A stretch of DNA of 64,000 nt from Faecalibacterium sp. CAG:1138 (lineage in GTDB: Bacteria > Bacillota > Clostridia > Christensenellales > CAG-917). The notes beneath the pieces are model-generated. The model worked only from the letters and a program-made list of their open reading frames with translations, was not told the DNA's origin and ran no database searches. Shown here piece by piece: positions 10,305-62,811 of this stretch. The stretch covers positions 31,244 through 95,243 of the forward strand of contig HF988637.1 of the NCBI GenBank assembly GCA_000434675.1, written 5' to 3'. The stretch's first letter is position 1. Each line of letters opens with the position of its first letter. The position numbers and the translations under genes were made by a program.

Positions 10305-10420
10305 TTTGTCACCTTCCGTGTTTTTGCGTTTTTACCATAGCACAATCTTCGGGGTTTGTCAACGACGCCAAGGTATAAATTGCTATCGTATGCAAAAACT
10401 ACCTGAAATCGGAGGTGCTT

Positions 10421-10951
10421 ATGAAAAGCGGAATCGTAAGACGTATTGACGAACTGGGGAGAGTGGTCATACCCAAAGAAATAAGGAAAACCATGCGCAT
10501 CAGAGAAGGCGAGGAACTGGAAATTTTTGTGGACGACGACAAAAATCTGGTGCTTAAAAAATATTCGCCGTTTGCGGGACTTAAGGAAATTTCCGAAGCG
10601 TTCATTTCGGCAGTTCAGAAAACGACCGACTCAGAGGCCGTGGTTTTTGACACGCAAAAGGTGGTGGCGGCAACGGAAAAATATCGCTCTGCGCTTTTGG
10701 GGAAAGAAGTTTCGGACGAGCTTCAGAAAATTATTTCCGACCGAAAAAAGGTGGTGCTGAGAGGTTCGTCGTGCGTTTTTGTGGCGGACGAAAATTTTGA
10801 GGCGACCGAACAGATAATCTGCCCGATAAACTCGATGGGAGAACTGTTGGGCGGCGTTATGTTCTTCAGAACGGACGGAATTCTGGGCGGCTTGGACGTC
10901 AAGCTTTGCGATTTCACGGCGGACTTTTTCAGATGTATAAACGTTCAGTAA
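10421..10951 (+). CDS. spoVT: Stage V sporulation protein T (AbrB-family regulator with GAF-like C-domain)
   Basis: N-terminus MKSGIVRRIDELGRVVIPKEIRKTMRIREGEELEIF is the SpoVT/AbrB swapped-hairpin signature. About 176 aa. ATG 10421 follows GGAGG. Followed by a yabM-yabN-like pair, as in B. subtilis. Confidence 0.9.
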   Translation: MKSGIVRRIDELGRVVIPKEIRKTMRIREGEELEIFVDDDKNLVLKKYSPFAGLKEISEAFISAVQKTTDSEAVVFDTQKVVAATEKYRSALLGKEVSDELQKIISDRKKVVLRGSSCVFVADENFEATEQIICPINSMGELLGGVMFFRTDGILGGLDVKLCDFTADFFRCINVQ

Positions 10952-25850: not shown

Positions 25851-26174
25851 ATGTATAAGAATGTCGAAAAACAAAAAGTCATCACGCTTAAAAGCCTCGT
25901 GGACTATATGCCGGGGCAGGTGGTGAGCAAAACTTTGGCGCAAAACGACAAGGTTATAGTTACCGTTTTCAGCTTCGACAAGGGCGAAGAAATTTCCACT
26001 CACGCGGCGGGCGGCGACGCCATGGGAACGGTGCTTGAAGGCGTGGGGAAATTTACGGTGGACGGCGTGGAATATCACGTCAGAGAAGGCGAAACCCTCG
26101 TTATGCCGCAGAACATACCTCACGCGGTTTTCGGAGAGGAACGCTTTAAGATGCTGCTCACCGTTTCGTTCTGA
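25851..26174 (+). CDS. Cupin-domain protein
   Basis: 107 aa. The spacing G(X)5H.H...(E)...G......P...PH.. (ISTHAAGGDAM...GE.LVMP.NIPHAV) is typical of the cupin_2 family. Confidence 0.75.
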   Translation: MYKNVEKQKVITLKSLVDYMPGQVVSKTLAQNDKVIVTVFSFDKGEEISTHAAGGDAMGTVLEGVGKFTVDGVEYHVREGETLVMPQNIPHAVFGEERFKMLLTVSF

Positions 26175-26187
26175 AAAATAACGGTTT

Positions 26188-26223
26188 CCGCAAATCGGCA
26201 TAAGTCGGTTTGCGGTTTTTTTT
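26188..26223 (+). terminator. Rho-independent terminator after the cupin gene
   Basis: Arms CCGCAAA (26188-26194) and TTTGCGG (26209-26215) followed by T8. Confidence 0.7.
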
Positions 26224-26379: not shown

Positions 26380-26409
26380 TTGACAAATGGCGTTTTGCGG
26401 GGTTAATAT
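26380..26409 (+). promoter_or_regulatory. Sigma-A-type promoter candidate for the phage-module regulator
   Basis: TTGACA (26380-26385), 17-18 nt spacer, TTAATA/TAATAT (26403-26409). Confidence 0.45.
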
Positions 26410-26525
26410 ACTCTCGGCGCAGCGATAAAACATATTTTTGAGAGACATTCAACCTTCCCTGAATTTGGGTAGGTTGAATTTTTACATCGAATTGCTGTGA
26501 ATTATTTAGGGAAGGAGAATTACTT

Positions 26526-27035
26526 ATGACAAACAAATCGCAAAATTGCCACACGGCAGAGGAAATCGAAGACTGCAAAATAATATTGCGCGTTTATGCG
26601 AAATCGAACTCTGCGGTCAGAGCTATCGAAAAACAGATTCTGAAAGAGGCATTGGGAAGTTTTTATTACAAAAGAGGCTCGTCGACTCTTGATCAGTGCA
26701 ACAGAATCATCGATATGATCGAAACCAAAGAAGGCTACCTGACGCTCAGGGAAAAAACGGAAAAAGTTTTGGGAACATTGAAAGCAAGCGACCGTGAATT
26801 TCTGACAATGCGATTTGTGAACAAAATGCAATTTTCAGACATCGCCGACTATTTCGGTTGGTCGCTCAGAAACTGCTTCCGCAGATACGACGGAGCTGCG
26901 CGGGCGTTTTGCGAGGCTATGAAAAACGATGAGTTTTTCGAAAGCGAGAAAGAGACGGTGAGGGCGCTGCCACTTTACGTATTGGAAAAAAGAAAGTCGG
27001 ACGAGAGGAGGGCGGAAGCGTTTTCGAGGGAATGA
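26526..27035 (+). CDS. Sigma-70-region-4-like HTH protein, ArpU/RinA-type phage late-gene activator candidate (a small-terminase role is not excluded)
   Basis: 169 aa. The C-terminal segment L..SDREFLTMRFVNKMQFSDIADYFGWSLRNCFRRYDGAARAF has the sigma r4/ArpU pattern. SD AAGGAG. It lies upstream of the terminase, as late activators do in Firmicute phages. Confidence 0.5.
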   Translation: MTNKSQNCHTAEEIEDCKIILRVYAKSNSAVRAIEKQILKEALGSFYYKRGSSTLDQCNRIIDMIETKEGYLTLREKTEKVLGTLKASDREFLTMRFVNKMQFSDIADYFGWSLRNCFRRYDGAARAFCEAMKNDEFFESEKETVRALPLYVLEKRKSDERRAEAFSRE

Positions 27036-27057
27036 AAAACCACGCCCGAAAGCGTGG
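27035..27057 (-). terminator. Terminator hairpin between convergent genes (U-run only on the minus strand)
   Basis: Hairpin CCACGC-ccgaaa-GCGTGG (27040-27057) is preceded by A5 on the plus strand. That gives hairpin plus U-run for the minus-strand gene. Confidence 0.5.
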
Positions 27058-27064
27058 CTGAAAG

Positions 27065-28060
27065 TTAATAGCGGTCGCCCGGGTAGTCGCGGTCGTTTCT
27101 GCGGTCTCGCCCGTCCGAGTAGCCGCGGCGATCGTAGTAGTCGTCACGACGGTAACGGCGATCGTAATAGTCGTCGTCGCGATAACGGCTGCGCGGTTCG
27201 TCGTAAGGAGAAGGGCCTACGTCGTAGTTGCGGTTGCGGTCGTAGTCGTAGCCGCCGCGCTTTTTTGCGGCAGGCTTGAACAGCAAAAATATGATGATGA
27301 CTGCCGGAAGAACTATGCCGATTATGAGCAGAATTCGGAGCACGTTGTTGTCGACGCTTAGAAGATTGTTCTTTTTGTCGCCGCCGTTTGAAGGATCTTC
27401 GGGATTGACGATTTCAACGGGAGGCCTCGAATAGAAGTGCTGAGGAATGACGTAGGTCGAAAGTTTGGCGGAAGCCACAGTTTTGCCCTCGACGGACGTA
27501 ACCAGCAGAACGTCTGACGGAACGTACCAGAACGCGCCGTCCGCGGCCTTGACGAATGCGTATTTCACGTCCTGATAGGTGAGAAAACCTAAAAACGTGA
27601 AGGCGGTGCCGGCGGTGAAATCTTCGGCGGTCGGAGCAGACTTTTTGCCGTTTTTGTTGCTCTTTATGACAAGTACGCTTACGTCGAGCACGTCGGTGAC
27701 AACGGTGAGATCCAGATTTGGATTTTTGTCGGTTTCGGCATTTTCAAAGTTGCTGTCGGTTTGCTTTGCAAGCTTCTTGACGTCGGCGTCGGAAAGAGTC
27801 CCTTCGACGTCCATATATCTGAACAAGTTCACTTCCGCGTCTTCGTCGTAGCCGAGATACTGGACGTAGTAGGTGGCGGGAACGGCCATGATTTCGTTTC
27901 GGTTGAAGCTGGCGGAAATGAGGGTTACGTCCTCGGTAACTTTAAGATATTCCCCCGCAACGAGCGTCACGGTTTCGTCTGCAAACGTCGCCCCCGCAGG
28001 GAACGAAAAACAGCCGATCAGCACGACAAGAATGAGTGAGAAATATAAAATTCGCTTCAT
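27065..28060 (-). CDS. Single-pass membrane protein with signal peptide and an Arg/Asp/Tyr-rich cytoplasmic tail
   Basis: Signal peptide MKRILYFSLILVVLIGCFSFPAGA. TM ILLIIGIVLPAVIIIFLLF. The 70-aa tail reads ...RSRYRDDDYYDRRYRRDDYYDRRGYSDGRDRRNDRDY. SD GAGGT. Confidence 0.7.
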   Translation of the reverse strand: MKRILYFSLILVVLIGCFSFPAGATFADETVTLVAGEYLKVTEDVTLISASFNRNEIMAVPATYYVQYLGYDEDAEVNLFRYMDVEGTLSDADVKKLAKQTDSNFENAETDKNPNLDLTVVTDVLDVSVLVIKSNKNGKKSAPTAEDFTAGTAFTFLGFLTYQDVKYAFVKAADGAFWYVPSDVLLVTSVEGKTVASAKLSTYVIPQHFYSRPPVEIVNPEDPSNGGDKKNNLLSVDNNVLRILLIIGIVLPAVIIIFLLFKPAAKKRGGYDYDRNRNYDVGPSPYDEPRSRYRDDDYYDRRYRRDDYYDRRGYSDGRDRRNDRDYPGDRY

Positions 28061-28137
28061 ATATACCTCGATAAATACTTATACACAATAAATTATATAC
28101 CAAAATTCGGTAAAAATAAAGCATTTTTAGGATTATT

Positions 28138-29571
28138 ATGAACAATTCGGAAAAAGAAAGGATTTTGAAACTTATAAAAATCGAAAAAGAACTGGGCAAA
28201 CGGCGCGGTAAAAAACGACTTCAGACATATAATTCGGGCGAAAAGGTGCACGAAAAACAGCTGGCGTTTCACAAATGTCTAAAACGCAACAGGTGGGTTT
28301 TCGGGGGTAACAGAAGCGGGAAAACCGAATGCGGAGCGGTGGAAACGGTGTGGATGCTGAGGGGAATCCATCCGTACAGAGAAAATAAGCCGAACGTTTC
28401 GGGCTGGGCGGTGTCGGTCAGCTACGAGGTGCAAAGGGACGTGGCGCAGCAGAAAATTCTGTCGTATCTGTCGAAGGACTGGATTGCGGAAATCGTTATG
28501 CAATCGGGGAAAAAGGACAGCCCGGAGACGGGCGTTATCGACCAGATCGTGGTGAAAAACGTTTTCGGAGGGCTTTCGAGGCTGGGGTTTAAGTCGGCGG
28601 ATCAGGGAAGAGAAAAATTTCAGGGCGCAAGCCTGGACTTCGTCTGGTTTGACGAGGAGCCGCCCGAGGACGTTTACAGGGAATGTCAGATGCGCGTTCT
28701 GGACAAAAAGGGCGACATTTTCGGAACCATGACGCCGCTTAAGGGGCAAACCTGGGTTTACGACGAAATTTATCTGAACAAGGGACAAAGCCCCGAAGTG
28801 TGGTACGAGCAGATGGAGTGGGCGGACAACCCGTATCTGGACGAAAAAGAGGTGGAAATGCTGTCTAATTCGCTGTCGGACGACGTGAAAGATTCCAGAC
28901 GATACGGAAGATTCAAAACCTACAACGGGTTGGTTTATCCGGAGTTCGACGTAAACGTCCACGTTATCGAGCCGTTTTCGGTGCCTGAGGAATGGCAGGC
29001 GGACATTTCGATAGACCCGGGACTCAACAATCCGCTGTCGTGCCATTTTTACGCGGTGGACGGCGACGGAACGGTTTACGTGGTGGCAGAGCATTTCGAA
29101 GCGGGAAAAGAAGTGGATTATCACGTCCGAAAAATCAACGAGCTGGCGGGAAAAATCGGTTGGAAGAGGGACGCGAGAGGACGACTGCACGCGCTTATCG
29201 ACAGTGCGGCAAACCAAAAAACACTGGCGTCGTCGAAAAGCGTGACGGAGCTTTTTGTGGAAAAAGGAATCGTGGTGAACCCAAAGGTCAACAAGGATTT
29301 GTTTTCGGGCATTGCAAAAATAAAGAATATGCTGGCTGCAAGACCGCCTAAAATTTTGATTTTCTCTTCCTGCGTCAACCTTATCCGAGAACTGAAAAGC
29401 TACGCCTGGGCCGAGGGCGACAGACCTAAAAAGTTCGACGACCACGCTTTGGACGAGCTCAGATATTTCGTGATGTCGGGAGCACTTCCGCAGGCTGTGA
29501 AGCCGCAAAAAACCGAAATACAAAAGGACATCGAGAGCCTCATTAAACTACAAAAAAGGAACAGACAATGA
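28138..29571 (+). CDS. Phage terminase large subunit
   Basis: Walker A FGGNRSGKTECG and Walker B LDFVWFDEEP. The C-terminal RNaseH-like nuclease region has ...SIDPG... and DDHALDELRY. 477 aa. Confidence 0.9.
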   Translation: MNNSEKERILKLIKIEKELGKRRGKKRLQTYNSGEKVHEKQLAFHKCLKRNRWVFGGNRSGKTECGAVETVWMLRGIHPYRENKPNVSGWAVSVSYEVQRDVAQQKILSYLSKDWIAEIVMQSGKKDSPETGVIDQIVVKNVFGGLSRLGFKSADQGREKFQGASLDFVWFDEEPPEDVYRECQMRVLDKKGDIFGTMTPLKGQTWVYDEIYLNKGQSPEVWYEQMEWADNPYLDEKEVEMLSNSLSDDVKDSRRYGRFKTYNGLVYPEFDVNVHVIEPFSVPEEWQADISIDPGLNNPLSCHFYAVDGDGTVYVVAEHFEAGKEVDYHVRKINELAGKIGWKRDARGRLHALIDSAANQKTLASSKSVTELFVEKGIVVNPKVNKDLFSGIAKIKNMLAARPPKILIFSSCVNLIRELKSYAWAEGDRPKKFDDHALDELRYFVMSGALPQAVKPQKTEIQKDIESLIKLQKRNRQ

Positions 29572-29861
29572 ACAACATTTCAAAAAAACTCAAGGCTGCT
29601 TTGACCAAAAAAGCTACGGGTTTTACCGCCGACGAGGTGGTTGAGGAATACGGAATCAACCCCGACGGCGAGTTTACGCTTCTGAAAAGAAAGGTTACGA
29701 AAAAATATTATCCTCCCGACACGTCGGCCATAAGCAAGGTGCAGGAGCAATGGGAGGCGGAGGAAAATTTGAGCAACCTCTCGGAAAGTCAACTTTTGGA
29801 GGAAAAAAGCAGATTGCTTGCCGAACTTAAGCTCGGCGACGAAAAAAAGGAGAAAAAATGA
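29568..29861 (+). CDS. Small phage protein; resembles only the C-terminal part of small terminase subunits
   Basis: 97 aa. The segment GFTADEVVEEY...KKVTKKYYPPDTSAI recalls the ...E..Y.....K..KK..PPD..A pattern near TerS C-termini. There is no N-terminal HTH. ATGA overlap with the terminase gene. Confidence 0.45.
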   Translation: MNNISKKLKAALTKKATGFTADEVVEEYGINPDGEFTLLKRKVTKKYYPPDTSAISKVQEQWEAEENLSNLSESQLLEEKSRLLAELKLGDEKKEKK

Positions 29862-31720
29862 AAGAACAACAAAATCAATTTCAGGAACAACTTGTGGCGG
29901 ACGTTAAGGCGGATTTCGAAAAAAGACGTCAGGCAAGACTTAGTATCGAACAGGCCTGGAGGCTTAATATGAACTTCATGGTCGGCAATCAATTCAGCGA
30001 AATCAACGCAAAAGGCGACATCGACGAAACCTGCAAACAGTTTTATTGGCAGGAAAGATCGGTGTTTAACCATATCGCGCCGATCGTCGAAACGAGGCTG
30101 GCCAAGCTGTCCAGAGTCAGAAGCGGCGTTACCGTGCGGCCGCTTACCACCGACGAGCAGGACGTGTCGGCCGCCAAATTCAGCACGGCCATACTAAACA
30201 GTATCATCGCCGAAAACAAACTGCCGAATCTTTTAAACACGGCAAACGCCTGGAGCGAGATTTGCGGCACGGTGTTTTATAAGGTGGTGTGGGACGGCGA
30301 AAAGGGTACGAAATACACCTTTAACGGCAAAACCGCCTCGGACGGCGACGTGTCGGTTATGGTTGTGCCGCCGTTTGAAATTTATCCCGAATCGCTTGAA
30401 GGAGATCTGGACAGTCAGTCGTCGATTATGCACGTCAAGGCGTATTCGGCGAGCGAAGTTAAGGACCTTTGGGGCGTGGACGTCAAACCGCAGAAGGTGA
30501 ACGTTTTCAATATGCAAAACGCCGTAGTTTCCGGCGGATTCGGCTACAATTCGACGGTGCCGAACGTTTCGGAGGAAATCAAGGACGACGCGGTGGTGGT
30601 TATCGAAAAATTCGAACTGCCGACGGCGGAATTCCCTAATGGCAGGCACGTTATCGTTGCGGGGGGCCGGCTTGTCTACATGGGCGAGCTGCCGTACGAA
30701 AACGGGGAAGAAGGCAAACGCAAATTCCCGTTTGTAAGGCAGGTGTCGCTGGATAACACGGGCGCGTTTTTCGGCGCGAGCGTGGTGGAAAGATGTATTC
30801 CGGTGCAGAGGGCGTACAACGCCGTGAAAAACCGAAAACTGGAATTTCTTAACCGAATCGCAATGGGAGTTCTGGCCGTCGAGGACGGAAGCGTCGATAC
30901 CGAACAGCTTGCAGACGAAGGACTTTGCCCGGGGAAAATTTTGGTGTATCGCCAGGGTTCGACGCCGCCGGTTATGATGAACGCGGGAAGCGTTCCGACC
31001 GATTTCCAACGTGAAGAAGACAGGCTTTTGCAGGAATTCACCATGATTTCCGGCGTGTCGGAGGTTATGGGCTACAGCAGAGTGCCCGAAAACGTTACGA
31101 GCGGCACGGCGATAAGCCTCATCATCGAACAGGACGACACCAGAATGAGCATAACCGCAAACAATCTGAGGGCGGCTATTCTGGAAATAGGAAAACAGAT
31201 TCTGAGACTGTACAAACAATTTGCAACCACCCGACGCTTAAAGCGCATAGCGGGCGAAAACGGAGAAGTGGACCTCGTGTATTTCACGGGCAACGACCTT
31301 ACGTCCGACGACATAGCGTTCGACACCGAAAACGATTTGTCGGACACGGCGGCGTCAAGGAGAAACATGGTTATGCAGATACTTTCGATGGGCCTACTTA
31401 ACGACGAAAACGGAACGCTGTCGCCGAGAAACAAGGCGAGAGTGCTGGAAATTCTGGGCTTCGGCAACTGGGAAAGCAGCAAAGACATCGAGGAACTGAA
31501 CATCAAAAAAGCTATGAGGGAAAACCTCAAAATGAAAGACGGCGGCGAAGCGCTCGTGCCCGATGAAACCGACGAGCACAGCATTCACATTGCCGAACAT
31601 ACCAAATTTATTCTGTCCCAGGAATACGACGGCGCTTGCGACGTTAAGAGCCGCGTGCTGGAACACATCACCTTGCACCGCCAGGCGCAGGAGATGGCAA
31701 ATCAAATCAAAAACGTTTAG
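29858..31720 (+). CDS. Phage portal protein (by position and size)
   Basis: 620 aa, immediately after the terminase with an ATGA overlap. It is followed by scaffold-like and capsid-like genes. I can cite no diagnostic motif. Confidence 0.65.
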   Translation: MKEQQNQFQEQLVADVKADFEKRRQARLSIEQAWRLNMNFMVGNQFSEINAKGDIDETCKQFYWQERSVFNHIAPIVETRLAKLSRVRSGVTVRPLTTDEQDVSAAKFSTAILNSIIAENKLPNLLNTANAWSEICGTVFYKVVWDGEKGTKYTFNGKTASDGDVSVMVVPPFEIYPESLEGDLDSQSSIMHVKAYSASEVKDLWGVDVKPQKVNVFNMQNAVVSGGFGYNSTVPNVSEEIKDDAVVVIEKFELPTAEFPNGRHVIVAGGRLVYMGELPYENGEEGKRKFPFVRQVSLDNTGAFFGASVVERCIPVQRAYNAVKNRKLEFLNRIAMGVLAVEDGSVDTEQLADEGLCPGKILVYRQGSTPPVMMNAGSVPTDFQREEDRLLQEFTMISGVSEVMGYSRVPENVTSGTAISLIIEQDDTRMSITANNLRAAILEIGKQILRLYKQFATTRRLKRIAGENGEVDLVYFTGNDLTSDDIAFDTENDLSDTAASRRNMVMQILSMGLLNDENGTLSPRNKARVLEILGFGNWESSKDIEELNIKKAMRENLKMKDGGEALVPDETDEHSIHIAEHTKFILSQEYDGACDVKSRVLEHITLHRQAQEMANQIKNV

Positions 31721-31731
31721 GAGGAACGAAT

Positions 31732-32337
31732 ATGAAAGATCAAATTTCTGAAACGGAAGCTGCCGTAACCGAGGATAAAACCGAGGTCAAAACGGCTGAC
31801 TTAAGGAAAGAAAACATCGGAAAATTTCCAAACAAAGAAGAACTTTATGCGGCCTACAATGCGCTGGAAAAAGAGTTTACGCGTCGCAGTCAGCGACTTA
31901 AAACCCTTGAAAGGCAAATTGACGACCTGAATAAAGCAAGCCTTCGGAAAGAGGAAAACGCGGAAAAGGCCGCAAAATTTTTAGAGCAGGCGGTGGAAAA
32001 CTATCCGTCGCTTCTGCCGCTTAAAAGCGAGCTGGCGGAGGCTCTTGCGGCGATAAATCCGGAGGACGAAACGTCGCTTTGGAAAATCGCTTTTCAGGTT
32101 GTGGCCGCGGCTTACCGTTCCCCCGACGACATAATGGCGGACGAAGATTTTTTGAACGAACGCGTTTATTCCAACGACGACGTGTTGACCGCCTGCGCGG
32201 AAAAATTTTTCGGCGCAAAAAGCGGCGCGAAAAGTCCGAGAACCGTCGGCTCTTGCGGCAGAGCCGTTATCACTTTGCCAAAAAAACCGTCTTCCCTTAA
32301 GGAAGCCAAGGAAATGGCAGAACATTTGTTCAAATAG
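31732..32337 (+). CDS. Scaffolding-protein candidate
   Basis: 201 aa, acidic and helical. It lies between the portal and capsid genes. Confidence 0.45.
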   Translation: MKDQISETEAAVTEDKTEVKTADLRKENIGKFPNKEELYAAYNALEKEFTRRSQRLKTLERQIDDLNKASLRKEENAEKAAKFLEQAVENYPSLLPLKSELAEALAAINPEDETSLWKIAFQVVAAAYRSPDDIMADEDFLNERVYSNDDVLTACAEKFFGAKSGAKSPRTVGSCGRAVITLPKKPSSLKEAKEMAEHLFK

Positions 32338-32367
32338 CCGCAAATAAAAAATTAAAAGGAGAAAAAC

Positions 32368-33552
32368 ATGATCAACTTTCAAACTGCCGAAAAAGCACTC
32401 AAATCTTTTTATCTTTCGGTGATTGCCGAACAACTTAACACCAAAATCAATCCGCTTCTTTCTAAAATCGAACAAACTTCTTCGGACGTTGCGGGAAAAG
32501 AAATCGTCAAGCTTTGCACTTACGGCGTGAACGGCGGCGTGGGCGCAGGCAGCGAAACCGGCACTTTGCCGACTTCCGGCGAAAACTCTTACGAACAGTT
32601 CAGACTGACTCTTAAGAACTTCTTCGGAAAGCTCGAAATTTCCGACAAAGCCCTGAGGGCGTCTCAAACCGACGGCGGCGCGTTCGTCAACCTTTTGAAC
32701 GCTGAAATGGACGGCTTGCTCAAAGCCAGCAAAATGAACTTCGGCCGTATGCTTTACGGCGACGGCAGCGGTAAGCTTGCAACCGTCGTTGCCAAAGAAA
32801 CGTCCGACACTTCTACAAACGACTACATCAAAGTGGACGACGTTTCCAAATTCGTTCTGGGCATGACCATCGACATCGCTACCACCTCGGGCGTTATCGC
32901 CGCAGCAGGCAAAAACAAACGCATCATCGGCATCGACAGAGCAAACAAGGTTATCCGCATTTCCGTTTGCCCGACCACCGCGTTTGCGGCAAACAGCACC
33001 GTGTACGTTCAGAACAGCAAGGACGCGGAGCTCACCGGCCTCGAAGCAATTTTCGGCAACAGCGAAACCTTGTACGGTCTTACCAGAGCCAACTTCGACT
33101 TTTTGAAACCGTACGTCAAATCTTCCTGCGGCAAGCTTACCGTGGACGCTATGCAAAGCGCAATCGATCAGGCAGAAATCGCTTCCGGCGGCGAAATCAA
33201 CTTCATCACCGCAAGCTACGACGTAAGACGTAACTACGTCGCAACGGTTACCGCAAAAGCAACCAACGTGGACGTTATGAACGTTGACGGCGGCTATAAA
33301 GCAATAAGCTACAGCGGAATTCCTATGGTGGCGGACAGATACGTTCCGGCAGGAACCATGTATATGCTCAACACCGACGACTTCAAACTGCATCAGCTTT
33401 GCGACTGGAGATGGATCGAAGGCGAAGGCGGTTCCGTGCTTCATCAGCTGGCAGGCACCCCTAATTATTACGCTACGCTCGTCAAATACGCAGATCTGCT
33501 TTGCGAAAGACCGAGCGGTCAGGTCAAAATCAGCGGCATAACCGCAGAATAA
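32368..33552 (+). CDS. Major capsid protein candidate
   Basis: 394 aa with a strong SD (AAAGGAGAAAAAC ATG). Its position follows the scaffold, and its composition is glycine- and beta-rich. The call rests on gene order and size only. Confidence 0.6.
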   Translation: MINFQTAEKALKSFYLSVIAEQLNTKINPLLSKIEQTSSDVAGKEIVKLCTYGVNGGVGAGSETGTLPTSGENSYEQFRLTLKNFFGKLEISDKALRASQTDGGAFVNLLNAEMDGLLKASKMNFGRMLYGDGSGKLATVVAKETSDTSTNDYIKVDDVSKFVLGMTIDIATTSGVIAAAGKNKRIIGIDRANKVIRISVCPTTAFAANSTVYVQNSKDAELTGLEAIFGNSETLYGLTRANFDFLKPYVKSSCGKLTVDAMQSAIDQAEIASGGEINFITASYDVRRNYVATVTAKATNVDVMNVDGGYKAISYSGIPMVADRYVPAGTMYMLNTDDFKLHQLCDWRWIEGEGGSVLHQLAGTPNYYATLVKYADLLCERPSGQVKISGITAE

Positions 33553-33574
33553 TTTCAAAAGGAGGAATTGGCCC

Positions 33575-33961
33575 GTGTCGTTTTTGATACAAGACGTGAC
33601 GGACGGCAAACTCGTTAAAATTGCCGAGGACGCATTGGACGTGGCGGACAGAATCCGCGAAATAGACTAAGGGTACGAGATCTATTATAACAGGGCGAAA
33701 AACCGATTCGAAATTTACAAAAAAGGAGAACGTCAGGCGGTTCTGCCGTTTGACGAACTGGACGAAAGAACCGTGACGTATCTTAGAAAAACCAGAATCG
33801 AAAACGCCGAGGAACTGATTGAGGAAATAGACTCGGAAAACCTGAAAAGAGAACAATCGATCGAGCGCGCAAAAAAAGACGAGAGAGAATACAAGCTCGG
33901 ACACCTTGTGAAATACCTCGAAAACGACAGGGCCTACGTTCCTCGATACGACGAATTATAG
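33575..33961 (+). pseudogene. 128-codon reading frame interrupted by one in-frame TAA (33668-33670): either a disrupted gene or a 31-aa ORF plus a 62-aa GTG-start ORF
   Basis: GTG 33575 lies 9 nt after GGAGG. After the TAA the same frame continues GYEIYYNRAKNRFEIY... with no ATG or SD until GTG 33773. Confidence 0.35.
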
Positions 33962-33970
33962 GAGGACGAT

Positions 33971-34513
33971 ATGACTGTAAAAGAAGTGATATCCGCCGCG
34001 CTTTTCAAGATGGGCTACGGAGAAGTCGACTTCGACGAAATGACCTCCGAAGAAAGCGCGTTGGTTCAGAAAATGCTGAAGTGCCTGAATCTGGTTTATC
34101 AACAAATAGAAACGGAATACTTGCCGCTGACGAAAAAAGAAACCAAAAACTTTTCGGGAGGGACGCTTGAAATTTCAACGCTGTCCAAGCCGCTTTTGTA
34201 CGTCGTAGGCATAAAAAAAGACGGCGTTGCCAAAAGCTTTAAGACGAAAGCAAGCTACATAGAAACCACCTTCGACGGCGACGCGGAGATAGAATACGCA
34301 TATCTTGCCGACGACTTTTTGCTCACCGGCGAAATTGCGGACAAAAGGCTTGCAAAATGGCTGATTGCGGACGGAGTGGTCGCGGAATTCTGCTACGCGG
34401 AGAATATGCCGGTCGAGGCGGCCGCGGCTTACAAACGGTTTACGGACGGACTTAAGTATCTGAAAAACAAAAGTCTGAGGCTTACGGTGCTGGCAAGGAG
34501 GTGGCCGCAGTGA
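33971..34513 (+). CDS. Phage structural protein (head-completion / connector candidate)
   Basis: 180 aa. SD GGAGGA. The stop overlaps the next start (GTGA). The assignment rests on position only. Confidence 0.5.
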   Translation: MTVKEVISAALFKMGYGEVDFDEMTSEESALVQKMLKCLNLVYQQIETEYLPLTKKETKNFSGGTLEISTLSKPLLYVVGIKKDGVAKSFKTKASYIETTFDGDAEIEYAYLADDFLLTGEIADKRLAKWLIADGVVAEFCYAENMPVEAAAAYKRFTDGLKYLKNKSLRLTVLARRWPQ

Positions 34514-35975
34514 AGGGTTCGACCACAAGACGAGTCAGACTGAAAATATCCGAATTCAAGGGAACGGATACGACCACCGAGAAAAAACTTCTGTCCCCCG
34601 AATACAGCCCCGACACCTACAATTTTACTTTCACCGGCGGTGCGCTTAAGGCGGAAATCGGCGTGGACGTGGCGATGCTCGGCATCCTTACCGACAAAAA
34701 TTTCTGGCACTATCTGCCGGAGCTTCCCGAAGGCGAAAGTGTGGCAAATCTGCATTTCTACCGCAAATACGACTTTACCAACAAAAAACGCGACGATAAA
34801 ATCGTGGTTAAGGGAAGTTCGGGAAATTACTACGTCGCGCCGTTCTGGGAAACGGGGACGTTTGAAAAGATACCGAACATATTCGTTTCCAGTTTGGACT
34901 CGAGCGTGAACTACCGCTACAACGGGAACGACGTCCTTATCATTGCGGGCACGGGCGGCGGCGTTTACATCTACGACGGCACGAAAATCACCTACGTCAA
35001 AAACGCCCCTACCATAACCAGCATGTGCGTGCATTACGAAAGAATTTACGCAACGGTTTCGGGCGAGGCGAACAGCTTGTGGTTTTCCGACGACTTCAAC
35101 CCCGTAAACTGGAACGCTTCGCTTACGGAGGGCGGCTTCATAAACTTCGACGACGACGGAGGAAGAGTGATTAAGGCCGTGAGTTTTCTGGACCACGTTT
35201 ACGTTTTCAGAGATTACGGCATCGTCAGGCTTACGGCGTACGGCTCGCAGGAGAACTACACCGTTTCGAAGGTTTACGTTTCGGCGTCCAGAATCCTGCC
35301 GGATACCATTGCCTGCTGCGGCGACAGAATTATCTTTCTGACCGACGAAGGGCTGTTTTCCTTCAACGGCTACACCATGACGATGATTGCAAAAGAAATA
35401 ACCAACCTTTTCCACCGCGATCGCTCGGCCGCGAAAGGCGCGTACGTCAGGGCAATTACTATCTTTGCTGCAGACTTCGTCAGGACACGGGCAAGGTGCT
35501 TTGCGAGGAGCAACCGGGATTTATAAACAATTCTGTCGTGCGCGTTGACGTAAGAACCGGCAAGGTGGACATTTTCAGAGGCGTGGACGTCAAGGGTATG
35601 ACCGCGATGGAAAGCTTGCATATCGGCGAAGTGCTGTTGTTTTTCAGAGGGCAATACTCCACGCAAATGGGCATGATGTCCAAGTCCGGCAAGCTGTTTG
35701 ACATTCTCGCGCCGAAGCACTGGGAATGCGCCGAAACGGATCTTGGGCGCCCGGATACCGAAAAAACCGTCAGGACGGTTTGGCTGACGACCGCCACGGA
35801 TTGCACGCTGACCGTCGTTTTGGACGGAAAGAAATTCGCATACGAGGTTAAAGGCGGCTCGGAACCGAAAAAAGTCGTCGTCAATCGCCGCGGAAGCACC
35901 GTGGGATTTATGATCGATACCGACAAAAAATCGCCGGTTATTTCCGGACTTACCGCGGAGGTGGATATCAAATGA
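34510..35975 (+). pseudogene. ~490-aa beta-rich phage structural protein split by a -1 frame change near 35446-35452
   Basis: Frame 1 (...AAKGAYV) and frame 0 (QGNYYLCCRLRQDTGKVLCEEQPGF...) overlap for more than 150 nt. Joined, they give one plausible protein. Start GTG 34510 lies 9 nt after AAGGAG. I see no slippery heptamer. Confidence 0.5.
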
Positions 35976-36103
35976 CGGACGTCAGAATTTTGGAGCTTAT
36001 CGCCACCGTGGAAAGACTGGCGAGGCAGATCGCCTTGCTGGAAAACAGAATTAAAGTTTTAGAACAAACGGAGGTACAAAATGTCAATTTGGGACAAAAT
36101 TGA
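35972..36103 (+). CDS. 43-aa leucine-zipper-like peptide (below the ORF-track cutoff)
   Basis: The ATG overlaps the upstream TGA (ATGA). The heptad pattern is ILELIATVERLARQIALLENRIKVLEQ. Its end overlaps the next gene. Confidence 0.35.
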   Translation: MTDVRILELIATVERLARQIALLENRIKVLEQTEVQNVNLGQN

Positions 36104-37109
36104 GGATCTATTTAAGACCAAAGAAGAAATCGCCGACGAAGAAGCGCAACGCGCGGGCGCGGCTGTCGAGGGCGAAACCACGAGCGGTCTGGTGGACGCT
36201 TTGAAAAATCTCGAGGACGAGCTTAACAAAAAAAATACGGTTGAAGAACCGGACTACGACAAGCTGTTTCCCGAGGTGAAGCTGGAGAAAAAGGAATACA
36301 CTCCCGCAACAGACGAGGAAATCGAGAAAAGAGCGCAGGACGAAACGGCAGGCGACTATCAGAAAAAAACGCAGAATCTTTTGGACTCGGCTAAGAAAAA
36401 AGGCGAGGAGCTTTCAGACTACAACAAACAGCTTTCCGAAAAGAAAACCGCTTCGCTTGCAGACGCCGAATCGGCGGTTGAAAGAGCAAAGGAAACCGCA
36501 TCCGACGATATGCTGAAAAGAGGCCTCGGGCGAAGCAGCATCGTTGCGGGCATCTTGGGCGAATACGACAAAGCGGGGCTTGAAAAAGCCGCGGAAATAA
36601 TGAATTCGTACGACTCGAAAATCGCAGACGTGGAAAAGGAAATTTCGGGGCTTGAATACGAAAAGAAAAAAAGCCTCGACGAACTCGACCTTGCGCATGC
36701 AAAGGAGGTTTCTGACAGAATCGCCGAGCTTAAGGCGGAAAGATTGAAGCTGTCGAACGAAGCTATCGCCGAAAACAACAAAATCGCCCAGAAGCAGGCG
36801 GATCTCGACGCCGAAAGGCTTAAAGACATCGAAAAATACAAAGAGGATCGAAAGAAAAAGGCCGAGGACGAGGCTAAACAGCTGGCCGAATACGAGAAAA
36901 AATACGGCTATTCCGGCGAAAAACAGCAGAACTACGCCAAACGCTACGAGCTGGCTTTGAGATATTATCTCACCGTGGATAGCGACATCGCGCTTAAGGC
37001 GCTGGAGTCGAGCGCAAACATGAAATACTATTTGGGAAACTATTACGACAAGCTTAAGTCGGTGCTCACCGATCGCGCGAACAACACCGACAGATACGGC
37101 ATAACTTGA
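36081..37109 (+). CDS. Lys/Glu-rich coiled-coil phage protein
   Basis: 342 aa. SD GGAGG. Long charged helical segments precede a C-terminal Tyr-rich globular end. Confidence 0.6.
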   Translation: MSIWDKIEDLFKTKEEIADEEAQRAGAAVEGETTSGLVDALKNLEDELNKKNTVEEPDYDKLFPEVKLEKKEYTPATDEEIEKRAQDETAGDYQKKTQNLLDSAKKKGEELSDYNKQLSEKKTASLADAESAVERAKETASDDMLKRGLGRSSIVAGILGEYDKAGLEKAAEIMNSYDSKIADVEKEISGLEYEKKKSLDELDLAHAKEVSDRIAELKAERLKLSNEAIAENNKIAQKQADLDAERLKDIEKYKEDRKKKAEDEAKQLAEYEKKYGYSGEKQQNYAKRYELALRYYLTVDSDIALKALESSANMKYYLGNYYDKLKSVLTDRANNTDRYGIT

Positions 37110-37369
37110 CGGAAATTCTGAAGCTGGCCACCGCCAACGGAATATGGGCCGCGCTGTTTGTGTTCTTGTTCTTTTACCAGCTTAAAGACGGCAAACAACG
37201 CGAGCAAAAATACACGGAAACCATTTCGGCCTTGTCCAAAAGTCTGTCGCAGTCCACGGACATTAAGGAGGACATCGAGGACATAAAGGACAGCTTGGAC
37301 GAAATCAAAACCTATTCGCAAAACCGGTACTCGAAAAAGAGTGCGGCAAAAAAGGAGAACGCAACGTGA
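37106..37369 (+). CDS. BhlA/UviB-like holin-type peptide
   Basis: 87 aa. A single N-terminal TM (GIWAALFVFLFFYQL) is followed by KDGKQREQKY and a charged helical tail, the architecture of the BhlA/UviB family. The TTG start overlaps the upstream TGA. Confidence 0.55.
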   Translation: MTEILKLATANGIWAALFVFLFFYQLKDGKQREQKYTETISALSKSLSQSTDIKEDIEDIKDSLDEIKTYSQNRYSKKSAAKKENAT

Positions 37370-37578
37370 AAATTCCCGACAAAATGAAGAGCAAAACTTT
37401 TTGGCTGGCGCTTGCGGGAGCCGTGGTCGTCTTTTTGCAGACGGCGGGAGTTAAGGTTGACGCGCCGTACGTCAACGAACTCGTTACGGCTCTATGCGCG
37501 GTGCTGGTTGTTTTAGGCATCGTCAAAGACGACAAAAAGGGCGGCGGACCGAGTGAAGGAGAAGCCCAGGTAGTATAA
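37366..37578 (+). CDS. Phage holin (phi LC3-family-like)
   Basis: 70 aa. KSKTFWLALAGAVVVFLQ is followed by a second TM LVTALCAVLVVLGIV and a basic or charged C-terminus. GTG start lies 8 nt after AAGGAG and overlaps the upstream TGA. Confidence 0.6.
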   Translation: MKIPDKMKSKTFWLALAGAVVVFLQTAGVKVDAPYVNELVTALCAVLVVLGIVKDDKKGGGPSEGEAQVV

Positions 37579-37579
37579 G

Positions 37580-37609
37580 AAAAACCCACCGAAATTCGGT
37601 GGGTTTTTT
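37580..37609. terminator. Bidirectional rho-independent terminator closing the phage module
   Basis: Arms CCCACCGAA and TTCGGTGGG (37585-37603) are flanked by an A-run and T6. Confidence 0.8.
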
Positions 37610-37621
37610 ACGTTAGGTAGC

Positions 37622-38965
37622 TTATTGCCGCATGTCGGACGGGCGCAGAACGAAGACGTCGGAATCGCCGAAAGAACTTTGGAAAAAGCCGTTTTTGGCC
37701 GTGCCGCAAAACGCGTACGCGCCGTTCACCGAAACTCCGCCGGACGCTCCTTCGAACGAATGGGTTACGTTAAGCTTGCCGCCCGAAAACGTGCCGTAAA
37801 CGAGTTTGCCATCGGACGAAAAGCACAGCGTTTCGCCACCTATGCCCTTGGTGTGGAAGCAAAGCTCGTCGCACGTCATATCGACGTCTGCGCGGACGAC
37901 GAAGTCAAGGTGCTCGCAAAATAGCAGCCATTTGGTTTCGCCGCCCAAAGCGGTCAGCACAAGAAAACCGTTTTCCACAGGGACGGAAAAAGCTTTTTCG
38001 GGTTTGTCGAGGGTGGTTTTTTTGATGACGGAGAAACTGCCGTCAAGCGTGCAAAGAAGAAGCGCGTCGGAGGTTTCGGCCTGATAAAAATAGCATTGTT
38101 TTCCGTCGGATACGAAAGGTTCGAAATTGCATAAACGCGCGTTTACGTTCAGCTTTTCGCCGACGAAACCGTCGGTTCGGTTGAAATCAAAAACTTTGAA
38201 GCAGTCGTTTGAGGCGGCTACGACGTTGAACGACGACTTTTCGGGAAGCACCGAAAATATTTTTTCCGCGCCTGAAAACGTTACGCTTGTCGTTCGAAGC
38301 ACGTCCAACGAATAGGAAAAGACCTTCACGGCAAGTTTGTCGTTTTGCGCCAGAAAGCAAAGTATTTCGCTGTCCGAAAGATACGTAAAAACGCTTTTGG
38401 ATTTGTCGGAAAAGACGGAGGAGCGCACTTCGCCGTCGAAGCTTACGTCGTAGAATCTGTCGAATTCGTCGCCGGAGGTTGCCACGAAAAAGCCGTTCGG
38501 CGTGATTTTTACGGACAAAAAGCTTTCGGATTTTGCGATGACGGAAACGTATTCCAAAGTGAGGTTTGAGGATACCTTTGCCATAACCGCCGATTTTTTG
38601 GCGCCGTCGGAGTTCACGTCGTAGCTGTCGGACGCGCTGTCGAAAAACAGATAGTAGCCGTCCGAAGAATCATAGACTTCGAAAAGCTGCTCTTTGCCGA
38701 GGCCGCCGACGTTTTGCGCGGCCATGTTCTCGTAAACGCTGGGCTTTCGGGGAAATTCGTTGTAAACCGTTTTGGGTTTGTCGGCGTCGTCGGTAGCGGG
38801 TTCGTCGGGCTTTGGCCCTGCAGGTTCTGCAGGTTCGGCCTGCGCGGGATTGTCGGGAACGGTCGGCTTGTCGCCTGAAAAATATTGATCGTAAAGGGCA
38901 AAGCACAGCACGCTGAGACCGATAAGAAAGGTCACCAGCAGCCATTTGCCGGTAGAGTTTTTCAT
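37622..38965 (-). CDS. Membrane-anchored hypothetical protein (Pro-rich linker + beta-rich ectodomain)
   Basis: ATG 38965 lies 9 nt after GGAGG. TM WLLVTFLIGLSVLCFAL is followed by PDNPAQAEPAEPAGPKPDEPATDD and about 370 aa of beta-rich sequence. Confidence 0.7.
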   Translation of the reverse strand: MKNSTGKWLLVTFLIGLSVLCFALYDQYFSGDKPTVPDNPAQAEPAEPAGPKPDEPATDDADKPKTVYNEFPRKPSVYENMAAQNVGGLGKEQLFEVYDSSDGYYLFFDSASDSYDVNSDGAKKSAVMAKVSSNLTLEYVSVIAKSESFLSVKITPNGFFVATSGDEFDRFYDVSFDGEVRSSVFSDKSKSVFTYLSDSEILCFLAQNDKLAVKVFSYSLDVLRTTSVTFSGAEKIFSVLPEKSSFNVVAASNDCFKVFDFNRTDGFVGEKLNVNARLCNFEPFVSDGKQCYFYQAETSDALLLCTLDGSFSVIKKTTLDKPEKAFSVPVENGFLVLTALGGETKWLLFCEHLDFVVRADVDMTCDELCFHTKGIGGETLCFSSDGKLVYGTFSGGKLNVTHSFEGASGGVSVNGAYAFCGTAKNGFFQSSFGDSDVFVLRPSDMRQ

Positions 38966-39044
38966 AATAAAACGCCTCCTTTTCCCACATTGTAGCATGG
39001 AGAAAAAGAGGCGAAAGCGGCTTTTCAAATTAAGTCAAAAAAAG

Positions 39045-50588: not shown

Positions 50589-50846
50589 ATGTTTGACGTA
50601 AAAATTTCGGATATTCTAAAAAGAGCGGGCGAAGATTTTTGCCCGTCTAAGGTTTCGCTTGCGGGAAATCGCGTTGCGCTAGTGGAGGGGCAGAAGGGGA
50701 TTTTGTCCTTTTCGGACGTTTCGGTGAAATTCAAAATGCCCGACGGCACTCTGGAGGTGTCGGGCGAAAAACTGGTTATCGAAGAAATTTCAAAAACCGC
50801 GGCCATAGTGTCGGGGAAGATTTCGGGAGTTTTTTATGAAAGGTAA
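50589..50846 (+). CDS. yqfC: Sporulation protein YqfC (YabP/YqfC family)
   Basis: About 85 aa. The pattern ...VSLAGNRVALVEGQKGILSFSDVSVKF....G.LEVSGEKLVIEEIS...A.VSGKISG matches the YqfC/YabP fold. Start moved to ATG 50589, downstream of the terminator. Confidence 0.8.
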   Translation: MFDVKISDILKRAGEDFCPSKVSLAGNRVALVEGQKGILSFSDVSVKFKMPDGTLEVSGEKLVIEEISKTAAIVSGKISGVFYER

Positions 50847-51948
50847 AAACCTCGTTTGCTTTGAAATTTTCGAGCTTAATCACGGGCGTATTCTGTCAAA
50901 AATCAGGGCAGAGGGAATTTACGTCGAAAAGGCCGTTTCCAAGGGCAGAAGTCTGCTGGTTTATTGTCGAAAAAAACAGTTGTCAAATATTATTGCTTTA
51001 TTTGACAGAATGTGTTATAATTATAAATCGGTGGAGTATGAAAGCTCCGTCGGCAGACTTTTAAGGCGCGTCAAATCGGGCGGGATATTTGCCGCCGCGG
51101 CCGTTTACGCCGCGCTGGCGCTTTACGCAAACGGACTTGTGCTTGACGTCAACGTCAGGTCGGAAACCGTTCCGAGGACGGAGGTTGTCGAAGTTCTGAA
51201 AAACCTCGGCGTCGAAGAAGGGAAGCGCCTCACCGTTTCCGAAACGGAAATGGAAAACGCCATAATAAAAAATATCGACGGCGTGTCGTTTGCAAGCGTC
51301 AAAAAGTCGGGTTGCAGACTGAACGTTACGGTGAAGGAAAGTCTGGACGGCGAACGATTTTTCGACTTTGACAAAAGCGTGATCCGCGCGTCGAAAAGCG
51401 CGGTGGTTACGAGGGTTATAGTCTGGTCGGGGACGGCCGAGTGCTCCGTCGGGAAAGCCGTGAAAGAGGGCGACGTCCTCATCGGCGGCTACTACACGGT
51501 CGGCGACGAAAAAGTGGGGACGGCGGCGTCCGGCGAGGTTTACGGCAAGTGCTATTTCACCGCCGAAACCTTTTACGGACCGAACGTCAAAACCGCAAGG
51601 CGCACGGGGCGGTCGAGGAAAAAGACCTTTCTGTCGTTTTTCGGCAAAAAGCAGGCGAGTTTCGATCCGGGCTTTCAGTCTTACGAAACGGTGATTACCG
51701 AAAAAACCGCGGGCATATTTTTGCCGTACAAATACGTTACCGTGGAGTGCTTCGAAACGGAATACGTTTTGCCTGCGCCGGATTTCGAGGTTGTAAGAGA
51801 GCGGCTTGAGCAGGAGGCTATGGCCCTTTGCTCGCAAAAAATTCCGCCGTCCGCGATCGTTTCGGGCGGGTGGACGGAAGTTAGAAAAGTTATGGACGGC
51901 TACGTCGTCAGGGCTACCGTGGAAGCGGAAATGCGCATTGACTCGTAG
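50836..51948 (+). CDS. yqfD: Sporulation protein YqfD
   Basis: 370 aa. The start overlaps the yqfC end. It has a central TM segment, and yqfC-yqfD synteny is conserved in endospore formers. Confidence 0.8.
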   Translation: MKGKNLVCFEIFELNHGRILSKIRAEGIYVEKAVSKGRSLLVYCRKKQLSNIIALFDRMCYNYKSVEYESSVGRLLRRVKSGGIFAAAAVYAALALYANGLVLDVNVRSETVPRTEVVEVLKNLGVEEGKRLTVSETEMENAIIKNIDGVSFASVKKSGCRLNVTVKESLDGERFFDFDKSVIRASKSAVVTRVIVWSGTAECSVGKAVKEGDVLIGGYYTVGDEKVGTAASGEVYGKCYFTAETFYGPNVKTARRTGRSRKKTFLSFFGKKQASFDPGFQSYETVITEKTAGIFLPYKYVTVECFETEYVLPAPDFEVVRERLEQEAMALCSQKIPPSAIVSGGWTEVRKVMDGYVVRATVEAEMRIDS

Positions 51949-58586: not shown

Positions 58587-58706
58587 CTCTTAGAAATCTC
58601 TTGCCAAGTCAAAAATCTGTCAAAAAAACGGGGTGGTTCCTCAAATTTTACATTTTTCTGTATCTACCGCTATGGGTAAAAAAGGGCGATAAAAAGGAGG
58701 TTTTTT

Positions 58707-59252
58707 ATGAAAAATTACAAATTAATCATTGAATATTACAAAAAAGGCAATAAACAAGAGCAAATCGCTACCCTTTGCAGTTGTTCTCGAATGACTGTTT
58801 TTACTGTGCTAAAGCGTTTTCGAACTCTAGAACTTAATTATGATGACGTAAAGTCAATGAGTGAAGAAGAAATTTCTTCTTTATTATTCCCCGAAAGGGC
58901 GAAAGCCGGGGAAGGGTATTTAATTCCCGATTTTAAGTGGGAAGAGTTTCAAATGTGTAAACATCAATCGTCTATAAGGCTTTGTTGGCGTAGGTATTGC
59001 AAACGTGCCGCAAAACAAAACTTGATGGCATACAGTTGGAAATGCTTTATAACTTTATATAATGCTTATCGCAGACCCAAAATAGTAGTCGAAGACCCAA
59101 ACGACAAGATTCGCAACAAACTAAAAGATTTTAACTTTTTATTATCTTGTTGCCAGCGTGGAAGTATAAACTATCAAGTAATCCAACGTAAAAAGGAAGA
59201 GTGGCTCAAATCCTTAAAACTCGAAGAAGATAAAATTTTGGACGACGAGTAA
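58707..59252 (+). mobile_element. IS21-family transposase (IstA) remnant: N-terminal HTH part only, no DDE domain
   Basis: The sequence NYKLIIEYYKKG..QEQIATLCSCSRMTVFTVLKRF...S.EEISSLLFPE....(Y)LIPDF..........LCW..YC follows the N-terminal ~125 aa pattern of Firmicute IS21 IstA. It then diverges and stops at 181 aa. Confidence 0.6.
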
Positions 59253-59264
59253 TTGAATAATCAA

Positions 59265-59304
59265 CTAAAAGGTTAGGACAAAGACGTTCTAACCTTTTAG
59301 TTTA
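59265..59304 (+). terminator. Rho-independent terminator after the IS remnant
   Basis: Perfect 12-bp arms CTAAAAGGTTAG and CTAACCTTTTAG with a 12-nt loop, followed by TTTA. Confidence 0.7.
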
Positions 59305-59469
59305 TGTATTGTTTTAACTAAACTCACACGAAACACTTGTTCAACGTAGTGTTTTGTGTAAAAACAGTTAAAAACTATATCTTTTAAACCTAAAATGCTT
59401 GAAAAACGTCGTTTTTTCTTCGGAAATCAAGCAAATTAGGTATAGTATTACTAAATATTAACCAAATCT

Positions 59470-59509
59470 ACACAAACCACTTGACTTTTTTAGTGTTTTA
59501 TATTAAAAT
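59470..59509 (+). promoter_or_regulatory. abiE promoter overlapped by an inverted repeat (putative AbiEi operator)
   Basis: TTGACT (59481-59486), 17 nt spacer, TAAAAT (59504-59509). The IR arms are ACACAAACCACT (59470-59481) and AGTGTTTTATAT (59492-59503), matching 9/12. A similar IR lies at 59326-59359. Confidence 0.45.
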
Positions 59510-59537
59510 GGTTAAAATTAGTTTTGAGGATATGAAA

Positions 59538-61213: not shown

Positions 61214-61277
61214 GAATATTGACTATTTGCCCAACAGAAAAAGAAGATAAAATTTAGTCATTTCAAAGGAGAAAATC

Positions 61278-62807: not shown

Positions 62808-62811
62808 TAAT

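Follow-up and report, generated by a model that had tools for sequence, protein, structure and literature searches.

What is a block of phage structural genes doing among the housekeeping genes of a gut bacterium, when none of its own genes would allow it to integrate, replicate or establish lysogeny? The question is raised by a module of ~11 kb in a 64-kb stretch of DNA from Faecalibacterium sp. CAG:1138 (contig HF988637.1; the whole stretch is referred to as the window). The first-pass annotation had described this module as head-only and had placed three possibilities side by side: an element resembling a gene transfer agent (GTA), a capsid-forming satellite that borrows tails, or a prophage on its way to decay. 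The evidence gathered here favours the GTA-like element. The module probably belongs to a recently described kind of GTA, and the copy carried by the window strain is mutationally inactivated. More specifically, we propose, with a probability of roughly 0.7, that a P22-like short-tailed phage gave rise to the block, which was domesticated and then passed on vertically as a GTA-like particle operon. In this view it retains just the parts required for assembling and filling a particle and for opening the membrane, accompanied by a regulator and a divergently transcribed membrane protein.

Gene identities were established from six-frame open reading frames (ORFs) and from Pfam, PHROG and NCBIfam scans of all ORFs between 26526 and 37578; long ORFs in antisense orientation (such as 31981-33609, minus strand) were treated as spurious. 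The scans confirmed the large terminase (TerL), portal and capsid genes that had been recognized before, the two holins, and the late-activator-like regulator, which resembles sigma-70 region 4. The scaffold-like protein is helical and takes its name from its position, which is kept across loci, its family matches being weak and of the coiled-coil type only. The full order runs from the regulator and the divergent membrane protein through TerL, a small ORF, the P22-type portal, the scaffold, the capsid, another small ORF, the adaptor-like protein, the nozzle and the coiled-coil micro-ORF to the DUF7934 protein and the two holins (Table 1). Two of these parts, the 331-aa divergent gene and the 43-aa micro-ORF, are conserved members of the module that the first reading did not include, and the 97-aa ORF after TerL is found in most related loci. 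The genes form a long operon in which 7 of the 11 junctions overlap and the other four are gaps of 9-30 nt; translational coupling is thus widespread, if not at nearly every junction as first described. Among the block ORFs the scans matched no integrase, repressor, replication or endolysin gene, in agreement with the earlier reading, and no ejection proteins, tailspike, endolysin, lysogeny or replication modules were matched in or beside the block. Similarly, a repeat search found no flanking att-like direct repeats, and Rfam gave nothing above the gathering score. What remains is a structural cluster of phage origin that has no genes of its own for replication, integration or lysogeny, as is characteristic of GTAs.

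The module is not head-only. Two ORFs of 341 and 159 aa downstream of the capsid are in fact one gene, which encodes 472-493 aa in related loci and 488 aa in the intact conspecific. The AlphaFold2 model of this intact conspecific protein (pLDDT 92.8, pTM 0.91) is a beta-propeller, and its best Foldseek match is 9nwi_Y of Pseudomonas phage Pa223 (E 3.6e-22, TM 0.75); further nozzle or hub structures matched are those of GP4, VP1, SU10, P22 gp10, Sf6 and T7 gp12, and the PDB matches also include 8jov, 8zkk, 7z4b, 9jg6, 7sg7 and 7ey7. On the strength of this model, the 488-aa protein is identified as a podovirus-type tail nozzle. It was structure prediction that revealed it, since profile searches against the sequences in the PDB gave nothing useful for the nozzle, the 180-aa protein or DUF7934. 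The 180-aa ORF occupies the position of gp4 in P22 and that of the ‘adaptor’ RCH50847 in the Faecalibacterium prausnitzii agent discussed below. One of its six orthologues matches phrog_2377 ‘head-tail adaptor Ad1’ at 5e-4, and hhalign gave a weak similarity of its N-terminus to P22 gp4 (E 0.0036, probability 9%), none of the hhalign comparisons with P22 gp4, gp10 and gp26 being significant. Position and these weak matches suggest an adaptor-like protein, and a short-tail core of adaptor-like protein and nozzle is therefore present. The earlier premise of a module without tail components is thus wrong; fibres or receptor-binding proteins and an endolysin are what the 64-kb window lacks.

The search for cryptic tail folds found the nozzle and left DUF7934 without a PDB match. 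The Pfam assignment itself is full-length and above the gathering score (447.8 bits against a cut-off of 30, residues 7-339), and the AlphaFold2 model (pLDDT 90) consists of a long helical hairpin and a small C-terminal helical domain, with a weak best BFVD match (2.8e-4) to an uncharacterised Podoviridae protein. DUF7934 sits where the needle and ejection genes of P22 lie, and from this position one might guess at a needle, a plug or an internal protein. The family comprises 1,232 clusters at 50% identity in 1.84 billion representatives. The micro-ORF that precedes it has counterparts of 30-43 aa in four related loci (L001, L004, L007 and L008).

Through gp10, the late operon of P22 is collinear with the module: TerL, PF16510 portal, scaffold, capsid, small ORF, a protein of roughly 170 aa at the adaptor position and a nozzle of roughly 480 aa with the gp10 fold, followed by a coiled-coil protein at the place of gp26. 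Sequence similarity is undetectable beyond the portal and TerL domains. Unlike P22, the module is devoid of the gp7, gp20 and gp16 ejection proteins, of a tailspike and of a pac-type small terminase gene upstream, as well as of lysogeny, replication and endolysin genes. In 50,697 phage genomes, neither DUF7934 nor the nozzle could be detected, and the identities reached by capsid and portal do not exceed 30%, all matches being actinobacteriophages. Homologues of the capsid number more than 5,900, and many are ~60% identical to it.

The block lies at exactly the same locus in all ten conspecific contigs (~99% identical), with every structural gene intact. In a sister species (L007, capsid 85% identical) and in a Clostridia metagenome-assembled genome (MAG) of 38% GC (L008, capsid 63% identical), the module adjoins the same membrane-protein gene, murG and parE; in L009 it is found downstream of parC and not upstream of parE, which we counted as the same neighbourhood with a different insertion point. 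More broadly, the module is collinear in all 25 further loci examined, 15 of which are not conspecific, over a GC range of 28-51%. Loci L001-L009 represent six lineages under the labels Acutalibacteraceae, ‘Acidaminococcus sp.’, Faecalibacterium sp., Clostridia and Christensenellaceae, while L020-L034 are 15 IMG/VR loci of 28-49% GC. The ‘Acidaminococcus sp.’ of L004-L006 is a MAG label that we judged unreliable (compare ‘Acidaminococcus sp. CAG:917’), and we make no claim for Negativicutes. The related loci share the same compact gene set and order, with housekeeping genes around them in every readable context, and no integrase, replication or lysogeny genes belonging to the module were found in any of those examined.

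Selection and composition agree with this stability. In the comparison with the sister species, module genes have dN/dS ratios of 0.085-0.27 (0.10 for TerL) and flanking genes ratios of 0.05-0.27, all of them approximate because dS is saturated, and piN/piS within the species is mostly below 0.13. The GC content of the block is 0.498, against 0.507-0.508 in the flanks, and its tetranucleotide distance to the host falls inside the host’s own range, while the island at 58.6 kb lies far outside (0.64). The flanks are housekeeping genes, cupin and rluD on the left and murG with parE/parC on the right. Host-like composition and ordinary flanks, both claimed in the first-pass annotation, are thus borne out, and the cross-species comparison that it had proposed places the module at the same locus in the sister species and the distant Clostridia MAG, with dN/dS below 1. 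A fixed chromosomal locus, vertical inheritance and purifying selection, further marks of a GTA, are all found.

The recently described agent is FpGTA, reported in Faecalibacterium prausnitzii by Borodovich et al. (Nat Commun 2026, PMC12946183). Its operon I spans 10.5 kb with ten ORFs, in the order TerL, portal, unknown, capsid, unknown, adaptor, nozzle and one further gene, followed by a ‘TolA’-annotated protein of high abundance. The particles, ~40 nm in size and without a visible tail, contain ~9 kb of host DNA packaged at random, the packaged length of 8.4-8.9 kb being too short for the whole 10.5-kb cluster. Operon II, ~125 kb from operon I, encodes fibres, a receptor-binding protein (RBP), a holin and an endolysin, and was undetected in 7 of 12 F. 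prausnitzii strains (PMC12946183). We took the FpGTA order from the accession order and the functions assigned in the proteomics table and compared it with the gene maps of the window and of a related locus (L010). In its gene order, the module matches operon I (proteins RCH50844-RCH50852) position for position. Operon I is likewise chromosomal, ~10 kb in length with about ten ORFs and without replication or lysogeny genes, and it likewise encodes a podovirus-type nozzle downstream of the capsid. Its host is a gut bacterium labelled Faecalibacterium, as here, where near-identical ParE proteins of the window organism carry the label Faecalibacterium sp. We infer from this that the module and FpGTA are probably homologous. 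There are also differences: two holins lie inside the window operon, whereas FpGTA keeps its holin and endolysin in operon II; FpGTA has operon II, whereas this 64-kb window contains no such fibre/RBP/lysin cluster; the window copy is mutationally inactivated, unlike FpGTA; and the window family extends to many Clostridia lineages, whereas the FpGTA operon was reported by its authors in Faecalibacterium only (PMC12946183). Taken together, the fixed locus, dN/dS far below 1, the ameliorated composition, the lack of mobility genes and the FpGTA-like order speak for the GTA-like option among those first considered.

Comparison with other domesticated elements points in the same direction. GTAs of the RcGTA type in Alphaproteobacteria and PBSX in Bacillus subtilis are also domesticated phage structural clusters at a fixed locus, inherited vertically, under purifying selection and released by lysis; the module shares these features, release by lysis being predicted. 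In contrast to the module, which is podovirus-derived and unrelated in sequence, these elements derive from siphoviruses or myoviruses, with long tails and HK97-type heads. PBSX, too, employs a sigma-like activator, Xpf.

Upstream of the structural genes, a regulator and a membrane protein form a conserved pair. The Pfam Sigma70_r4 and r4_2 matches of the regulator (~2e-4) are below the cut-off; its orthologue in L007 is 58% identical, with a dN/dS of 0.18, and Sigma70_r4_2-type proteins hold the same position in four IMG/VR loci (L023, L024, L029 and L033). In these four, the whole trio recurs: a sigma-70 region-4-like gene, a divergent protein with signal peptide and transmembrane (TM) helix, and TerL. 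The 331-aa protein of the window has no family match in the Pfam, PHROG and NCBIfam scans. It consists of a signal peptide, an ectodomain, one TM helix and a cytoplasmic tail rich in Arg, Asp and Tyr, and both position and architecture are kept in L001, L004, L007 and L010, where these three residues make up 0.63-0.83 of the tail; dN/dS is 0.19, and two of the four IMG/VR counterparts carry SH3_3 domains. The length of the tail differs between taxa, and the 3' part of the gene contains two tandem 30-nt copies that are 80% identical (27126-27185). Upstream of the regulator, a terminator-like hairpin at 26188-26215 closes the host gene that precedes the promoter-like site; the scan for promoters and terminators did not find more of them in the region than expected from shuffles.

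Other observations concern variation of the module among its relatives. Many capsid homologues, including the Acutalibacteraceae-labelled group (L001:10001-11401), carry a C-terminal Listeria-Bacteroides repeat (Flg_new) of ~70 aa, probably an outward-facing decoration, which the window capsid does not have. In L021 (IMGVR_UViG_3300029711_000209, L021:1228-5100), only residues 280-476 of TerL are present, and genes for two large serine recombinases (510 and 536 aa) come directly before them. The TerL gene of the module was apparently interrupted by an incoming element, a situation that recalls the intervening elements in sporulation genes. In L022 (IMGVR_UViG_3300010163_003556, L022:12-9120), the end of a prophage, with tail-fibre proteins, a holin and two serine integrases (519 and 535 aa), abuts the homologue of the 128-aa gene. 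The 9 kb upstream do not contain the capsid-side half of the module, which indicates that an insertion separates the capsid from the genes downstream of it.

The copy in the window strain is a case of its own. Both ORF disruptions pointed out at first are real when the assembled sequence is compared with the ten conspecifics. The nonsense change at 33668 cuts the 128-aa gene, which is intact in the 10 conspecifics and in L007 and L008, and the nozzle is frameshifted by the loss of one nucleotide after 35448 (AA to A, not in a long homopolymer), which none of the ten conspecifics shows. In P22, packaged DNA leaks out without gp10, the protein at the nozzle position. With a premature stop in the 128-aa gene and a frameshifted nozzle, the particle system of the window strain is very probably non-functional. 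The other substitutions private to the window lineage within the module are four synonymous and one missense, so two of about seven private changes are knock-outs, and this argues for recent inactivation and not for long drift. Moreover, one conspecific (L018) carries a 1-nt deletion at window position 26697 (L018:4160-4668) that splits the regulator into ORFs of 63 and 106 aa, so that the module has been disrupted a second time, and independently, in this species.

These lesions weigh against the view that the block is a GTA-like particle operon, and they are not the only points to do so. Together with the frameshifted regulator of L018, the two inactivating mutations of the window indicate that selection on the system is not absolute. 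No fibre, receptor-binding or endolysin/lysin genes are found within the 64-kb window. The link to FpGTA rests on architecture, because no F. prausnitzii-named protein is among the matches listed in the homologue and cluster searches, and a scan of genome contigs returned three loci, F. prausnitzii not among them. In addition, the FpGTA capsid is annotated as ‘N4-gp56 family’ whereas the window capsid matches NF033394 only, and the two capsids may come from different lineages. Finally, whether FpGTA delivers DNA was left open by its authors (PMC12946183).

Could the operon be maintained for something other than gene transfer? The same domesticated particle operon might serve PBSX-like killing, a programmed lysis that releases DNA or public goods, or another role in terminal cell fate, and we regard such a purpose as unlikely. 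It would fit the conservation of two holins in the module, the lack of a receptor-binding protein in the operon and the caution of the FpGTA authors about delivery (PMC12946183), as well as the serine-recombinase elements that interrupt the module in L021 and L022, since genes that are needed only in cells undergoing terminal differentiation tolerate such insertions. Yet TerL, portal and capsid are under strong purifying selection, and this implies that DNA packaging itself is selected; killing of the PBSX type is further at odds with a short podovirus tail core without obvious killing apparatus.

An ordinary prophage remnant, drifting to loss and kept by chance, would account for the nonsense codon and the frameshift of the window copy, for the broken regulator of L018 and for the missing lysogeny and replication modules. 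As an explanation of the family it is nevertheless highly improbable: the structural genes are all intact in the 10 conspecifics, the same locus is occupied in the sister species and the distant MAG, dN/dS values of 0.09-0.27 resemble those of the housekeeping neighbours, the compact gene set is identical in 15 non-conspecific related loci between 28 and 51% GC, and with only about seven private changes both knock-outs look recent. Decay is thus the right word for the window copy, with its private lesions in the 128-aa gene and the nozzle, and not for the intact and selected family. The satellite that the first reading considered, a helper-mobilised element similar to capsid-forming phage-inducible chromosomal islands (cf-PICIs) and borrowing the tails of its helper, can hardly be credited. 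Like the module, cf-PICIs are small blocks with their own terminase, portal and capsid and without tail fibres, and ~11 kb would be a suitable length. However, they carry an integrase, att sites and a replication module and vary in presence between strains, and the module has none of these: no integrase, excisionase, replication/primase module or att repeats, a locus fixed in all conspecifics and in related genera with no variation in presence between strains, and a composition identical to that of the host. Moreover, since it encodes its own nozzle, a helper tail tube would not be needed.

For a GTA-like particle operon, the gene content suggests the following course of events. The sigma-like protein would switch the operon on in a subpopulation of cells, from the AT-rich divergent intergenic region; procapsids would form on the portal with the help of the scaffold; and TerL would pack host DNA, in effect at random, by a headful mechanism. 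The portal would then be sealed by the adaptor and the nozzle, and the holins, aided by a lysin from another part of the genome, would release the particles. Any fibres or receptor-binding proteins may come from a second locus, as in the collinear FpGTA.

Table 1. Features of the particle module, in window coordinates, with the matches or observations behind each assignment.
Feature	Position	Strand	Basis or remark
Promoter-like site	26380-26409	+	TTGACA, 18 nt, TAATAT; upstream of regulator gene; consensus match only
Sigma-70 region-4-like putative activator, 169 aa	26526-27035	+	PHROG 36, 5.4e-9
Terminator-like hairpin	27038-27059		Between convergent regulator and membrane-protein genes
Single-pass membrane protein, 331 aa	27065-28060	-	Divergent from TerL
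TerL (large terminase)	28138-29571	+	PF03237, 2.9e-11; phrog_2, 3.4e-29
Conserved ORF, 97 aa, possible small terminase-like subunit	29568-29861	+	Motif KRKVTKKYYPPD; phrog_309 ‘terminase small subunit’, 1.3e-5, weak
P22-type portal	29858-31720	+	PF16510, 1.5e-25; phrog_156, 2e-42; phage GP4 portal 8jov, 4.4e-6
Helical scaffold-like protein, 201 aa	31732-32337	+	Between portal and capsid, as in P22
Major capsid protein	32368-33552	+	NF033394 capsid_maj_Podo, 2.9e-86; phrog_14242, 2.1e-57
Conserved 128-aa gene, pseudogene in window	33575-33961	+	GAA to TAA at 33668 (codon 32)
Candidate head-to-tail adaptor, 180 aa	33971-34513	+	Position and weak matches
Predicted tail nozzle (hub) gene, frameshifted in window	34510-35975	+	Structure model of intact orthologue
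Coiled-coil micro-ORF, 43 aa	35972-36103	+	Conserved between nozzle and DUF7934
DUF7934 protein	36081-37109	+	PF25588, 3.4e-134
BhlA-family holin	37106-37369	+	PF10960, 2.7e-16
Second holin (Phage_holin_1)	37366-37578	+	PF04531, 24.2 bits against a cut-off of 22; phrog_297, 2.6e-10

Some features of the surroundings deserve a mention. Between the module and murG, the minus strand encodes a membrane-anchored protein of 468 aa (37622-39028) that has no family match and is kept in the same position in L007 (53%) and L008 (28%). On the other side, an indel polymorphism lies just past the start of the cupin gene (position 25859, within 25851-25870): one G is absent in 3 of 10 conspecifics, whose cupin is called from an upstream start, with 128 aa against 107 aa, and the sister species L007 appears to be without most of the cupin region. 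A surface protein of 1,226 aa (119-3799) carries seven BspA-type leucine-rich repeat stretches and Listeria-Bacteroides repeat domains. The stretch from 58600 to 64000, AT-rich (GC 0.33 against 0.51), has the look of a defence or toxin-antitoxin island gained by horizontal transfer; its genes encode an HTH_23 protein (58707-59252), a nucleotidyltransferase toxin of the AbiEii type (60275-61213) and a protein with a GHKL ATPase (61278-62807). The rest of the 64-kb window is housekeeping. It includes SpoVT-like (10415-10951) and YqfD-like (50836-51948) sporulation genes at a GC of ~50%, and the label Faecalibacterium sp. on the organism’s close relatives may be a loose one.

Beyond the published description of FpGTA, our results add a wider distribution, a conserved pair of regulator and membrane protein, and insertions inside the operon. 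It is tempting to speculate that the family is an ancient viriform, passed on vertically through much of the gut-associated Clostridia, with a core that includes the sigma-70 region-4-like activator and the membrane protein, and that it could explain the as yet unaccounted-for GTA-type packaging reported in Christensenellaceae, Oscillospiraceae and other Ruminococcaceae; we offer this tentatively, at a little less than even odds. If it is true, the knock-outs in the window strain and in L018, as well as the insertions in L021 and L022, would reflect a costly trait of terminal cells. The strain-private knock-outs, which hint at a cost to individual cells, are also natural negative controls. DUF7934 and the nozzle together can serve as markers that separate such elements from prophages, since current pipelines call them viral, as the fifteen loci in IMG/VR illustrate. 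Finally, if these operons make DNA-filled particles like those of FpGTA, one gene family could underlie much of the capsid-packaged Clostridia DNA in gut viromes, and the capsid, the nozzle, DUF7934 and the sigma-like regulator would provide a genetic handle on gene flow among abundant commensals that are hard to manipulate.

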